Below are positions 1 to 7,657 of a DNA stretch of 8,514 nucleotides, in pieces. The notes below the pieces were generated by a model. That model searched no databases and was not told where the DNA came from. It saw nothing but the letters and a program-made list of their open reading frames with translations. Within the stretch, counting starts at the first letter, position 1, and each line of letters opens with the position of its first letter. Made by a program: the position numbers and the translations under genes. Location: IMG/VR virus record IMGVR_UViG_2703718829_000003, one strand, 5' to 3'. The stretch is from a virus (Duplodnaviria > Heunggongvirae > Uroviricota > Caudoviricetes).

Positions 1-1053
1 ATGACGTTACCACTAAGAGATTACTATCCTATTGAGCGCGCGGCAAAGTTATTAGACTGCGATATTGATGATCTTATTCATTGGGCTGTGACAGGCTGCA
101 TTCGTATTTGTATAAAAATTGAATCTGCATATGGAGTATTAAATATCCCAGATGAAAAAGATGTGGTTAATTTCGATTGTCTGCGTAAGTTTCTGGATTC
201 AGAACCATGTAAATCACGGTTATCTGACCTTGATGCCATTTCAGAAAGGGCGGCAGAACACCATGGTTTTAATTATATAAAAACCAAGTCGAGAATTATA
301 TTTGATTCAATGTGCGAATCTCTAAGTCATTCATATGTAGCGCCCAAATTTGGTGACATAGCAATTGATACTGCATTTGCTTTGTTAAATTATTATAACA
401 GGGGGTTATATTATGGGGAAAATTATCACATATATAGTGTATATCGAATAGCAACGGATGAAAGAGCTGTGGCAGTTGTACCACCAGTATTTAAAGGTAT
501 TCAAGAAAAATACCATAAGTATTTTGTTGAAATAGGCGGTATTTTCGCTTTGGGGGGAAGTTTTTTTGCCAACTATGATTTTAATAAGAAGTTTAAAGCC
601 AACCGAATAATTAATAGCAATATTATAATTGCTTCTGACGTTGATATACATATAGGAGTAATTGTTACTGAGGATGTTTCTTTTGATATTGGTGATTTAT
701 ATATCTTAAAGAGTGATTTTTTAAAAATACAAAATGCTACAAGCTCCAATAGCGAGTTAAGAAAAGATTATGTTAATCCATTGGCAGACACTTTATATTT
801 GTGTGCGGGTAACAATATATTAAGCTCTGAGGATGGAGAGAAAGATATATGCACCAATAAAAACAATATAGAACGATTATCTAAAACAATGAAGGATTTT
901 TTTCGTGCGATGCTTGTTATTCATTATAAAGAACTCGAAAACAATCCGGTAAAACTTGCTGATATATTGACCGCGGAAGCAAAAGAGGCAGGACTCAATA
1001 TGCGCTTTGATAAAAGTACTATATCAAGATGGATTAAGGCATCATCTCAGTAA
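1..1053 (+). CDS. Hypothetical protein, 350 aa; AT-rich cargo-like gene with HTH-like segments at both termini (possible DNA-binding regulator); function unknown
   Basis: Uninterrupted 350-codon ORF starting at the ATG at position 1 and ending at TAA 1051-1053. GC is visibly lower (roughly one third by eye) than the ~50% of the rest of the window. N-terminus (ERAAKLLDCDIDDLIHWAVTG) and C-terminus (GLNMRFDKSTISRWIK) resemble helix-turn-helix DNA-binding motifs. No catalytic motif recognised. Upstream signals lie outside the window. Confidence 0.6.
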   Translation: MTLPLRDYYPIERAAKLLDCDIDDLIHWAVTGCIRICIKIESAYGVLNIPDEKDVVNFDCLRKFLDSEPCKSRLSDLDAISERAAEHHGFNYIKTKSRIIFDSMCESLSHSYVAPKFGDIAIDTAFALLNYYNRGLYYGENYHIYSVYRIATDERAVAVVPPVFKGIQEKYHKYFVEIGGIFALGGSFFANYDFNKKFKANRIINSNIIIASDVDIHIGVIVTEDVSFDIGDLYILKSDFLKIQNATSSNSELRKDYVNPLADTLYLCAGNNILSSEDGEKDICTNKNNIERLSKTMKDFFRAMLVIHYKELENNPVKLADILTAEAKEAGLNMRFDKSTISRWIKASSQ

Positions 1054-1148
1054 GACCAGCAAGCATCTTAATAAGACCTTTAATACTTGCTTTCAAAACT
1101 CCGTAAAACAAAAATCTCCCCCGAAAGTTCAGAAACATAGGGGGAAAT

Positions 1149-1469
1149 ATGACTCAATCCGCATTCATTCCACCAACTCCAGAACAGCGCCGCACCATAC
1201 TCGCCGAGTATGGTTTTGACTGCGAAGAACGCATCAGGGAAGAGAAGTGTAAAAAAATGACCACGCTTTCACGCTCCCGGCGCTGGGAACTGGAGAAGAT
1301 CGGTGCTTTTCCTCCCCGTCACTCTTTGGGGCGTTGCTCATGTACCTGGCTGTTAAGTGATGTTTTGTGGTGGCTACGTAATCCGCCAGTTATTGCCAAA
1401 GTGAATAACCCATACGAAAACGCCAAAAAGAAAAGGGAGAGGGAATCCGGTAGCGCCAGAGTTGAATAA
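1149..1469 (+). CDS. alpA: AlpA-family (phage/prophage regulatory, MerR-like HTH) transcriptional regulator, 106 aa
   Basis: Strong Shine-Dalgarno (AGGGGGAAAT) immediately upstream of the ATG at 1149. The segment RIREEKCKKMTTLSRSRRWELEKIGAFPPRHSLGRCSCTWLLSDVLWWL follows the AlpA pattern (helix - LSRS-type turn - FP.P..LG - R...W...EI..WL). The HTH helix begins upstream of the internal Met at 1257, which supports the 1149 start. Confidence 0.7.
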   Translation: MTQSAFIPPTPEQRRTILAEYGFDCEERIREEKCKKMTTLSRSRRWELEKIGAFPPRHSLGRCSCTWLLSDVLWWLRNPPVIAKVNNPYENAKKKRERESGSARVE

Positions 1470-1735: not shown

Positions 1736-1765
1736 TTGACTCGCTTTTTTGTCATGGCGTATCGT
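1736..1765 (+). promoter_or_regulatory. Candidate sigma70 promoter for the small-ORF/primase/integrase operon, abutted by a 10-bp palindrome
   Basis: -35-like TTGACT (1736-1741), 18-bp spacer, -10-like TATCGT (1760-1765). The perfect palindrome GCAATATTGC (1726-1735) sits directly upstream and could be an operator. Assigned by eye only. Confidence 0.3.
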
Positions 1766-1835
1766 TTGCCCGCACCTCATAAAGCGGGTGCCGGGTTTAG
1801 CAGCCTGATTGACAAAGCGGGTAGCCGCTATATTT

Positions 1836-1914
1836 CCGTAATGCGGTTTTTTTGTGCCCGTAATACCACCCTTTCCCGTATTATGGCGGGGCGTAATGGG
1901 GAGGCCGTAAGGCC
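1836..1914 (+). repeat. Five direct CGTAAT-like heptamer repeats in the untranslated leader, ending in a GNRA-type hairpin
   Basis: CCGTAAT (1836-1842), CCGTAAT (1858-1864), CCGTATT (1876-1882), GCGTAAT (1891-1897), CCGTAAG (1905-1911). The last copy lies inside GGCC-GTAA-GGCC (1903-1914), a 4-bp stem with a GUAA tetraloop. A second hairpin follows (CTGGT 1917-1921 / ACCAG 1931-1935). Confidence 0.4.
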
Positions 1915-2017
1915 TGCTGGTTTCTTTGTCACCAGTCTGCTAACCCTGTTACGTCCCGCCACCATGTTTAGCAGCGTGCTGGCGAGACTCCGTAAATTAG
2001 ACAAAGGAGCCGCCAAA

Positions 2018-5861: not shown

Positions 5862-6866
5862 ATGCCGATCAGAAAGATGCATGATGGGCGGTGGCTACTC
5901 GATATCAGGCCATGCGGACGTAAAGGGAAGCGCATCAGAAGAATATTTGACAAAAAATCTATAGCTACAGCAACTGAACGGTACATCATAGCGAACGCCG
6001 AAAAGCGCGAGTTTATACAGGGCTATCGCGACCGGAGAACCCTTAGCGATTTACTGGAATTGTGGTGGGTTTATCACGGTCAGCACAGGCGAAAGGCAAA
6101 CACGGATAAACAGCAGCTTGGCAAAATTATTAATGAGCTTGGAGCTGACATGTTTGCGGTAGAACTCGACAAATTAAAAATCATTGCATGGCGATCGCAG
6201 AAAATTGCGGAAGGATTAAAGCCGTCCTCAGCAAACAGATACATGAACAGATTATCGGGGATGTTTACAGCCCTGAAAAAGATCGGTTTGTGGGATGCAG
6301 AGCATCCGGTTCGTGGTATTCCTGTTCTTTATGTAAAGCAGCGGGAAATGGCCTTTTTATCAAAAAACGAGGTCACATTGTTGCTTGACGGGCTGAATGG
6401 AGATCAACGAAGGGTTGCGCTCTTGTGTCTTTGTACCGGAGCCCGCTGGAGTGAGGCCAGCAGATTGCATGGAGAGCAAATAGTTCATAATAGAATAACG
6501 TTTCTGGAAACCAAAAACGGTAGAAAAAGAACGGTGCCTGTGTCGCAGGAAATATGCGATGCCGTAAAAACAAAAGAAACCGGGCGACTGTTTGATGTGA
6601 AGTACAGAGAGTTTTGCCGGGCATTAAAAAAAATAAAACCCGATTTACCGAGGGGGCAGGCTGCGCATGTATTGCGGCATACATTCGCCAGTCACTTTGT
6701 GATGAACGGTGGCAACATTCTTGCGCTACAAAAAATCCTTGGGCATGCGACAATTCAGCAGACTATGGCATACGCACATTTTGCACCGGATTATCTGGCA
6801 GATGCCATGAGATTTAACCCGGTAGCCAACATAGTGATCACCGAAGAAAAAGAGCCAGCAGAGTAA
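5862..6866 (+). CDS. int: Tyrosine site-specific recombinase (small phage-type integrase, P2-Int-like size), 334 aa
   Basis: AGGAGG (5846-5851) upstream of the ATG at 5862, which lies 2 nt after the primase stop. Catalytic signature present: Arg box TGARWSEASRL, HVLRHTFASHF (H-x-x-R), and nucleophile Tyr in LGHATIQQTMAYAHFAPDY. N-terminus MPIRKMHDGRWLLDIRPCGRKGKRIRRIF is typical of small P2-type integrases. Confidence 0.9.
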   Translation: MPIRKMHDGRWLLDIRPCGRKGKRIRRIFDKKSIATATERYIIANAEKREFIQGYRDRRTLSDLLELWWVYHGQHRRKANTDKQQLGKIINELGADMFAVELDKLKIIAWRSQKIAEGLKPSSANRYMNRLSGMFTALKKIGLWDAEHPVRGIPVLYVKQREMAFLSKNEVTLLLDGLNGDQRRVALLCLCTGARWSEASRLHGEQIVHNRITFLETKNGRKRTVPVSQEICDAVKTKETGRLFDVKYREFCRALKKIKPDLPRGQAAHVLRHTFASHFVMNGGNILALQKILGHATIQQTMAYAHFAPDYLADAMRFNPVANIVITEEKEPAE

Positions 6867-6921: not shown

Positions 6922-7117
6922 GTTGGCCAGAACCAACGGTAACAGCAATGCAATGGTGGTCATATTGCAGTAGTGCCGCCATCAATTTTTTGCTTCCCCT
7001 GATTATCAGAAAGAGTCAAACAGTGGCGAGATACATTTCAATCACAGAGAGTTAATGAGAGTGATACAGAGTAAGTGGGTTTAATTAACATTTTAAAGGG
7101 TCGCGCTAAAGTTTGGG

Positions 7118-7431
7118 GGGGGGTGCGCAAAGCGGTTACAACGGTTACAAATTTAAAATCACTTATTTTTGCATTATATATCAATACATTATAACTGGTC
7201 GGATGAGTTACAAAAGCGGTTACAACGCGGTTACATGTAACCGTTTTGTTAGGTTACAGGCGGTTACAGGTTAAGTTTTTAATTGATTGATAATAAAGTG
7301 CTTTTTGAAACCTGTAACCGTTGTAACCGCAGTGTAACCGCAAAGCGGTTACAAACAATATCCATTAAAATCATGCTGTTAAGTGGTGTTTTTGACTGTT
7401 GTAACCGTTGTAACCGCTTTGCGCACCCCCC
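7118..7431. repeat. Iteron array (at least 13 copies of CGGTTACA / TGTAACCG) bounded by a perfect 33-bp inverted repeat; putative origin of replication
   Basis: The inverted-repeat arms 7118-7150 and 7399-7431 are exact reverse complements (GGGGGGTGCGCAAAGCGGTTACAACGGTTACAA). Octamer copies in + orientation begin near 7133, 7142, 7217, 7228, 7252 (GGTTACA only), 7261 and 7346; in inverted orientation at 7236, 7313, 7322, 7333, 7400 and 7409. A 16-bp perfect palindrome CGGTTACATGTAACCG lies at 7228-7243. AT-rich spacers separate the clusters. Confidence 0.5.
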
Positions 7432-7657
7432 ACCGGATTATGAGGCAGAGCCCCAAAACAACTGGCCTGACCTCTAACAAAAATGCAACATCAATCATTG
7501 ATTTTTTGGGGCTGTCAGTCACGGGGAGTTGCCCTGTTGTTTGGCAGAAAAATGAAGTATGTACATGCGCGGCGGGGATGGTAAAAAACGTAATACACGC
7601 GGCGCAGTTGCCATAAAAAATCTCTCAAAAGCACTCTTTTTGACGCTATTGTTCATC

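Follow-up and report, generated by a model that had tools for sequence, protein, structure and literature searches.

We analysed a stretch of DNA of 8,514 nucleotides from the IMG/VR virus record IMGVR_UViG_2703718829_000003 (hereafter the window), which holds part of a P4-like satellite, and concentrated on its first gene. This gene, here called X (1..1053, plus strand), is an open reading frame (ORF) of 350 aa which runs from ATG to TAA and lies between the satellite integrase gene int, located outside the window, and alpA. X belongs to a large family with a recurrent gene order. Its divergence is uncoupled from that of its neighbours, one allele group is a mosaic within the gene, and downstream of X there is a pair of DNA sites with a fixed geometry which covary with the last helix of the protein. 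We favour the reading that X encodes a modular protein which binds DNA sequence-specifically and regulates the satellite alpA promoter, preferably as an activator, and hold this as a tentative view which in our estimate falls a little short of probable. As far as our searches went, the definition of the family, its domain plan, the uncoupled evolution, the intragenic mosaic and the co-varying operator pair are new.

The X family and its genomic slot

In RefSeq the product of X is named as a hypothetical protein (WP_016242744.1). X is regarded as a real gene because full-length homologues exist, at 23-65% identity, and its start codon is supported by the family consensus, which opens with MxLPLR. 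An exhaustive HMMER search, in which E <= 1e-3 was used as the cut-off for membership, gave at least 254 cluster representatives, 22 of them below 1e-30. The named members come from E. coli, Salmonella, Yersinia, Pectobacterium, Providencia and Serratia and are all annotated as hypothetical; no Vibrio member was recovered, and a second search for homologues yielded Enterobacterales alone. A scan of genome contigs for X gave two loci only, tblastn against 50,697 phage records gave no match, and tblastn against plasmids gave matches to the N-terminal domain only, in Klebsiella. Annotated as an integrase and matched by Arm-DNA-bind_3, the protein P0190 from Yersinia pseudotuberculosis (299 aa) is also matched by the X profile along most of its length; either a fusion of int and X or a frameshifted annotation could account for it.

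The DNA of the window is identical to an island of E. coli JP538 (locus L001) located between gcd and hpt. In this complete element the ATG of X follows the stop codon of a 399-aa P4-type integrase at a distance of 16 nt; this true integrase (L001 7785-8984) and attL lie just upstream of X, outside the window. Because the window and the IMG/VR contigs L037 and L038 all begin exactly at the ATG of X, we consider the window edge an artefact of provirus calling and the element in the window truncated.

The order P4-type int, X, alpA on one strand was found in 22 of the 23 distinct loci inspected, the integrase at this slot being composed of Arm-DNA-bind_3 and Phage_integrase. The exception is the Rhodocyclales island L004, in which int is followed by a 218-aa relative sharing only the N-terminal domain and where no alpA is recognisable. 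Across the loci the distance between int and X ranges from -4 (an ATGA overlap, seen in L018, L028, L032 and L058) to ~100 nt. This gene order is present at several attachment sites, including gcd|hpt (with two backbones), ycaO-linked, fis-type and other sites, and also at Yersinia-type and Providencia-type loci; no tRNA was found at the attachment site. In the X-bearing elements beside the fis-3' attachment repeat the primase is of the D5 type, and a ClpP-capsid fusion is also encoded.

In each of the 43 E. coli genomes that contain this int/alpA module the slot is filled by a single gene of ~1 kb: 29 carry the window allele, one a mosaic and 13 other alleles. A broader picture emerges from 78 IMG/VR loci with related integrases (among L064-L143), where X is present in 35 and other families in 43. 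These non-X loci comprise 27 with a 'DLPKxFxLxKY' family and nine with a 216-aa family, while five hold others and two are unclassified. The slot between int and alpA nearly always contains one ORF of 216-350 aa, with the non-X families at 216-300 aa. By hhalign, kinship of X to the other slot families was rejected (probability <=11%), the 216-aa family giving a faint C-terminal hint only.

The initial annotation of the window, made from the sequence alone, described X as a compositional outlier, and this holds. X has a GC content of 33.7% and a GC content at third codon positions (GC3) of 25.6%, in comparison to 45.7% GC for the whole window, and all 300-nt windows with a GC content <=37% are inside 1-1050. 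Parity with the neighbouring genes, which would have spoken for the contrary, was not found, as alpA has 49.8% (GC3 50.5%) and the primase gene 49.0%. The X family is 8-16 percentage points lower in GC than the adjacent int at every locus measured. Low GC is therefore a family-wide trait and does not mark a recent acquisition in this element.

Domain plan of the X protein

X gave zero family matches against Pfam, NCBIfam, PHROG and PADLOC, so that no housekeeping family, considered beforehand as a contrary outcome, was hit by the profile scans. The PADLOC scan gave 0 families at E values up to 10, no Pfam domain was present in 28 close and 93 distant relatives of X (121 in total), and a Pfam scan of the isolated C-terminal domain was without match. 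Profiles of the whole protein, of the N-terminal and of the C-terminal domain matched PDB sequences at chance level only (NDUFS7, designed repeat proteins). Several candidate relationships were rejected. The N-terminal domain showed no kinship to AlpA/HTH_17 (hhalign probability 1.3% against an AlpA alignment, no Pfam match), and X showed none to P4 cII of the sce7726 family (hhalign probability 0.15%) or to MerR (no MerR profile match, no coiled coil); a similarity to Stl/CI-type repressors was found neither by sequence nor by fold.

The structure of X was modelled with AlphaFold2, with a mean predicted local distance difference test score (pLDDT) of 82.8 and a predicted template modelling score (pTM) of 0.69. 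The N-terminal conserved domain (residues 1-48; 1..144, plus strand) shows the highest mean pairwise identity in X, 57%, and has the consensus MxLPLRxYYPIxRAAxLLxCxxDDLxHWAxxGxI. Its residues 8-48 are modelled as strand-helix-helix-hairpin, with a pLDDT of 93-96 from residue 11 onwards, and the N-terminus is predicted from this model to be winged-helix-turn-helix-like. The fold matches of this domain are local and weak and are of the MerR/excisionase type (Foldseek local matches with E > 1).

The variable central region (residues 52-290; 154..870, plus strand) is made up of a helical insert, an alpha/beta core and a disordered linker. The insert (residues 52-169) has a mean pairwise identity of 12% and is missing from short family members; the core (residues 170-250) reaches 26% and contains G180 and the motif F.I.DLFILK.DF. 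In the linker (residues 251-290) the identity is again 12%, and its stretch 262-289, disordered in the model, joins the terminal units to the core. These ~250 residues gave no recognisable motif, as was noted initially and is now backed by the empty Pfam scans of the 121 relatives, and also no fold match. We propose that the central region is a signal-sensing or specificity module.

At the other end a C-terminal three-helix domain of helix-turn-helix (HTH)-like appearance (residues 291-348; 871..1044, plus strand) shows 31% mean pairwise identity. Its helices are modelled at 295-308, 316-329 and 338-348, so that the unit spans 295-348, and its consensus is ER.S...NP.KLA...FDK.T.SRWLK; the last helix, FDKSTISRWIK, is proposed as the recognition helix. 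The label HTH-like, already used in the initial annotation, is applied to both ends of X because of the model and because the C-terminal helix covaries with nearby DNA sites (see below); sequence profiles gave it no support.

Alleles of X are exchanged independently of int and alpA

The loci L001 and L002 share 94% identity in Int and 99% in AlpA, but only 29% in X. Other pairs behave in the same way, with X 27-29% identical despite 94% in Int and 99-100% in AlpA, and in L032 versus L028 the values are 86% for Int, 58% for AlpA and 23% for X. Regardless of the identity of the flanks, that of X levelled at 23-35%. In the E. coli module an identical AlpA (WP_000194274.1) is accompanied by three different X alleles. 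Judged by these comparisons, X evolves independently of its neighbouring genes.

The replaced cassette begins within the final ~40 nt of int and ends ~25-40 nt before the ATG of alpA. As its borders are outside the paired sites O1 and O2 described below, these sites travel with X. Exchange is also seen within the gene. The DNA of L057 and L062 is 95-100% identical to that of L001 in most of int, in X codons ~14-54, at the C-terminus, in the intergenic region and in alpA, but only 50-70% identical across positions 162-869 of the window, which correspond to the central region of X. Between L001 and L057 no other stretch is strongly diverged; a smaller diverged patch spans the int-X junction. The operators of L057 are essentially those of L001, apart from a single-base difference at the 3' edge of the O1 repeat. 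The mobile unit thus appears to be an allele, either X together with the sites that follow it or just the central domain, and not an added gene.

These results bear on two earlier suggestions. A horizontal acquisition of X had been deduced from its composition; X is indeed exchanged independently of its neighbours, yet the low GC content, being family-wide, is no sign of a recent event. That X could be accessory cargo is disfavoured by the slot being filled in 43 of 43 E. coli genomes with the module, by the recurrence of the gene order at other attachment sites and on other backbones, and by the swapping of alleles in place of the addition of genes.

Paired palindromic sites downstream of X

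Two candidate operators, neither assigned to a strand, lie between the end of X and alpA. O1 (1046..1054; CTCAGTAAG) is an imperfect palindrome which overlaps the stop codon of X and is centred at -99 from the ATG of alpA; O2 (1067..1075; CTTAATAAG) is a perfect palindrome centred at -78, which results in a spacing of 21 bp. The direct repeat TAAGACC occurs at 1051 and 1072 and has no further copy in the 26.5-kb locus, in which O2 is also the sole match to the motif CTTANTAAG. Further copies of the operator motifs were not found across the ~25-kb loci, including the element ends; the candidate sites lie ~2.3 kb from attL, beside alpA.

Other alleles of X are followed by other sites, namely GCTAAATTAGC / GCTAATTTAGC, GGGCTTAnTAAGyC, GGTGATATCACC, GTGAAATCAC, and TGGAAATTTCCA or pairs of GGAAnTTCC. 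Of 19 distinct downstream regions, seven contain an exact direct repeat, 7 nt or longer, whose copies are spaced by exactly 21 bp, and no other spacing occurs in more than one; in 2000 dinucleotide shuffles the 21-bp count averaged 0.12 and never exceeded 2. The result recurred in an independent IMG/VR set anchored on integrases, where 11 of 16 repeats were spaced by 20-22 bp. For non-X slot genes paired sites were seen in one of 32 downstream regions. The position is also constrained: palindrome centres at -78/-99 or -80/-101 from the ATG of alpA were found in nine loci comprising three site sequences, and in L018 the centres are at -66.5/-87.5.

The site sequence covaries with the last helix of X. 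The helix (S/N)T(I/V)(S/G)RW(I/L)K pairs with the site CTTAnTAAG, T.A(R/K)YLG with GTGAnnTCAC, and GK.I..WLK with GGAAnTTCC; DTI(T/S)NWLK pairs with GCTAAnTTAGC, even for X alleles which are just 38% identical. L001 and L058 have an identical AlpA and different sites. By these comparisons the type of site tracks the last helix of X and not AlpA or Int.

The alpA promoter region and RNA immunity

alpA (1149..1469, plus strand) encodes a vis-like regulator/excisionase (Pfam Phage_AlpA 3.3e-7; PHROG 2790 4.6e-30). Upstream of it a putative promoter (1087..1115, plus strand) was assigned by eye, with the -35 box TTGCTT at 1087-1092, a 17-nt spacer and the -10 box AAAAAT at 1110-1115. Elements resembling TTG-N17/18-AAAAAT were seen, also by eye, at the equivalent place in L002, L005 and L008. 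Terminator consensus matches across int-X-alpA did not exceed chance. The idea of an Ogr/Delta box before alpA was rejected, there being no TGT-N12-ACA in this place. The sequence TGTGAACACGTTGCTACA at 1518-1535, between alpA and the C4 region, fits the TGT-N12-ACA dyad of Ogr/Delta, the count of such dyads in the window being at chance level.

Between the putative promoter and alpA a hairpin (1117..1145, plus strand) is formed by a 5' arm at 1117-1122 and a 3' arm, GGGGGA at 1140-1145, which is the Shine-Dalgarno sequence of alpA. Its minimum free energy is -12.1 kcal/mol (z = -3.0). Most other loci have hairpins in the equivalent position, unrelated in sequence and in some cases followed by a T-run. 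Such a hairpin could silence the translation of alpA on transcripts reading through from int-X, and a transcript from the putative promoter would be without the 5' arm.

Further downstream there is a P4-type RNA immunity region (1759..1966, plus strand) with c4-a1b1 targets, isrK and the C4 antisense RNA. In Rfam C4 scores 79.7 bits (E 7e-15), isrK 52.1 bits and c4-a1b1 29 bits, the last below gathering. The C4 and isrK RNAs and the c4-a1b1 match are inside the ORF 1664-2191, named 'host cell division inhibitor Icd-like' in RefSeq. By these matches the element has an RNA immunity of the P4/P1 type downstream of alpA. The order alpA, C4 RNA, primase mirrors the order vis, cI RNA, primase of P4, and because the immunity RNA follows alpA as in P4, the alpA promoter is the counterpart of the P4 late-left promoter PLL. 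PLL is activated by P2 Cox and by Delta/Ogr and drives vis. Its firing overrides the cI/C4 RNA immunity (PMC10111431). Control of alpA by X would resemble that of PLL in that DNA-binding proteins act upstream of the vis/alpA promoter and override the cI RNA immunity, and would differ in that the satellite itself supplies the candidate regulator from a gene beside int, that this regulator is allele-specific, and that there is no Ogr/Delta box before alpA.

The role of X

The closest known counterparts of X by position are found in the PICMIs (phage-inducible chromosomal minimalist islands), satellites of Vibrionaceae which carry integrase-overlapping or integrase-contiguous genes (IOLG/ICG) forming 13 families without assigned function (PMC10803314). 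X shares with them the position between alpA and a P4-type int on the same strand, overlapping or abutting int, the absence of known domains, the many divergent families and the occurrence in satellites with the fis-3' attachment repeat; the 4-nt ATGA overlap seen in four X loci is frequent among them too. In PICMI115 the iolg is needed for helper-induced excision, while expression of alpA alone suffices, and how the helper turns on alpA is a stated open question (PMC10803314). The IOLG product was proposed to join the excision complex, and neither DNA sites nor a domain plan nor a role in regulation were reported for it (PMC10803314). This description is all the literature on the slot that we found; general satellite papers describe an integration zone of int and alpA only (PMC13586616, PMC10111431).

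In the reading favoured here X would be produced together with the integrase from an upstream operon, and its C-terminal HTH would read the palindromic operators O1 and O2. Their 21-bp spacing would place both on one face of the helix, at about -72 (O1) and -51 (O2) relative to the likely transcription start of alpA. A constant scaffold would be provided by the alpha/beta core together with the conserved winged-HTH-like domain at the N-terminus, and a swappable specificity module, which senses a helper-phage product, by the hypervariable central region (residues ~55-290). X would activate a weak, positively controlled alpA promoter, and read-through from int-X would be kept silent by the hairpin, which buries the ribosome-binding site of alpA. 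An activator is favoured because the sites are upstream of the likely -35 box, because promoters of the PLL type are positively controlled, because the element already has an RNA immunity, and because in PICMI115 the slot gene is needed for helper-induced excision and alpA alone suffices. The joint replacement of X and its sites recalls the immunity regions of lambdoid phages, where a regulator and its cognate operators are swapped together between near-identical genomes; here a single gene is involved, the sites are at its 3' flank only, and the central domain can be exchanged alone. From the winged helices of MerR, HTH_17 and AlpA X differs by the lack of a profile match and of a coiled coil and by sites which are not between -35 and -10. 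The further claim that X represents a new class of satellite helper sensors, with an operator pair of its own and a central domain shuffled to change the phage cue, is possible but rather doubtful.

Several observations weigh against X as a regulator of alpA. A sigma-70 consensus scan of int-X-alpA found no alpA promoter above chance, and since the promoter was assigned by eye, the activator-like position of O1 and O2 is conditional. Neither terminal domain of X matches any HTH sequence profile, the fold matches are weak, and the covariation of helix and site is partly confounded by shared ancestry of the alleles. Apparently unrelated families fill 43 of the 78 slots, and the 32 downstream regions checked there are without 21-bp paired sites (for the single case of paired sites see above), so that the function of the slot may be broader than the regulation of alpA through O1/O2. 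In the fis-att satellites L025 and L034 int is directly followed by alpA, without a slot gene, which makes the slot gene dispensable for some int/alpA modules. X is likened to the IOLGd of PICMI115 by position, and no Vibrio member of the X family was recovered. The sensing of a helper by X is what we infer, and nothing points to a helper-derived ligand.

The initial annotation had raised an Stl-like role. As a master repressor, X bound to O1 and O2 would keep alpA off, by repression or as a roadblock to read-through, until a helper protein releases it; we regard this as unlikely, though it shares the evidence from DNA sites and modularity with the activator reading, and O1, placed over the stop codon of X, would be a suitable site for a roadblock. 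Hypervariable sensing domains are a hallmark of the Stl proteins of Staphylococcus aureus pathogenicity islands (SaPIs). Like these, X is encoded by a satellite, combines an HTH with a highly variable region, shows allelic diversity and is located at the control point of induction. On the other hand, X resembles Stl neither in sequence nor in fold, the searches gave no similarity to any repressor family, and X has two terminal DNA-binding-like domains with sites at the 3' flank of its own gene. Among the classes of explanation, a regulator of the Stl kind, a DNA-binding protein next to alpA with a variable sensing part, fits best. A strict master repressor is not supported, because X and alpA are co-oriented and not divergent (an arrangement atypical for Stl, as had been remarked, and confirmed from the ORF strands), because the element already has a separate C4/cI RNA immunity, because the sites would lie upstream of the likely -35 box and not over the promoter, and because the PICMI iolg is a positive requirement, its loss abolishing excision and not making it constitutive.

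Less likely still is a role of X as cofactor of Int or AlpA, as proposed for IOLG, in the excisive/integrative complex, with the N-terminal domain contacting Int, AlpA or att DNA. The tight linkage to int, with 4-nt ATGA overlaps in L018, L028, L032 and L058 suggestive of translational coupling, would agree with this, as would the requirement of the PICMI115 iolg for excision and the weak excisionase/MerR-type fold matches at the N-terminus of X. A structural partner should, however, co-evolve with the complex, and X is 27-29% identical between elements which use the same attachment locus and have identities of 94% in Int and 99-100% in AlpA. Moreover the allele-specific sites are beside alpA, ~2.3 kb from attL and far from the element ends, some related satellites have no slot gene, and the loss of excision is explained equally well by a failed induction of alpA. 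We consider it improbable, more so than the cofactor role, that X is cargo for anti-phage defence or superinfection exclusion in an integrase-proximal hotspot of P4-like satellites. X is hypervariable, low in GC and adjoins int, the main defence hotspot of these satellites (PMC13586616); several unrelated families occupy the slot, and P4 itself has cII (sce7726 family) downstream of int, followed by beta and gop. But P4 cII has the same position relative to int without being homologous to X, the slot always holds one gene (43 of 43 E. coli genomes with the module), and terminal HTH-like domains and operators at a fixed distance from alpA would be left unexplained by defence. With neither a PADLOC match nor an enzymatic or effector motif or a partner gene in or with X, the defence role considered initially is not borne out.

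Other features of the element

X is followed in the element by alpA, the C4/isrK RNAs, small ORFs, a Toprim primase, a second integrase, iterons and an ogr/delta gene, the Pfam matches being AlpA, Toprim/DUF5906, integrase and Ogr_Delta. With an integrase, AlpA/Vis, a C4-type RNA, primase alpha and an Ogr/Delta-like zinc finger the element has the characteristics of a P4-like satellite. The second tyrosine recombinase (Int_N and Phage_integrase; 5862-6866) starts 3 nt past the stop codon of the primase; secondary integrases have been mentioned for a few phage-inducible chromosomal islands (PICIs) (PMC10111431). GCGGTTACA occurs 14 times or more at 7115-7434, in either orientation, and these copies include a 36-nt inverted repeat with 97% complementarity; these repeats downstream of the primase are probably the replication origin. 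Beyond the window, L001 17679-20296 contains a 236-aa ORF, a 423-aa 'P2 family major capsid protein' and a mazEF pair beside hpt. In the sister element L002 the capsid-like gene is interrupted by IS100.

Implications

AlpA is the known induction switch in Gram-negative satellites (PICIs, PICMIs and many P4-like elements). If X represents the new class of helper sensors considered above, this would answer how helpers switch on alpA, and the slot between int and alpA, filled by several unrelated families in elements of the P4-like, PICI-like and PICMI-like types, would be the locus of helper-range specificity in Gram-negative satellites. If X regulates alpA as favoured here, typing of X alleles would predict helper specificity, and the regulator-operator cassettes would provide orthogonal parts for the engineering of satellites. 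Even if this reading is wrong, the X family, now annotated as 'hypothetical', is a widespread part of the integration module.

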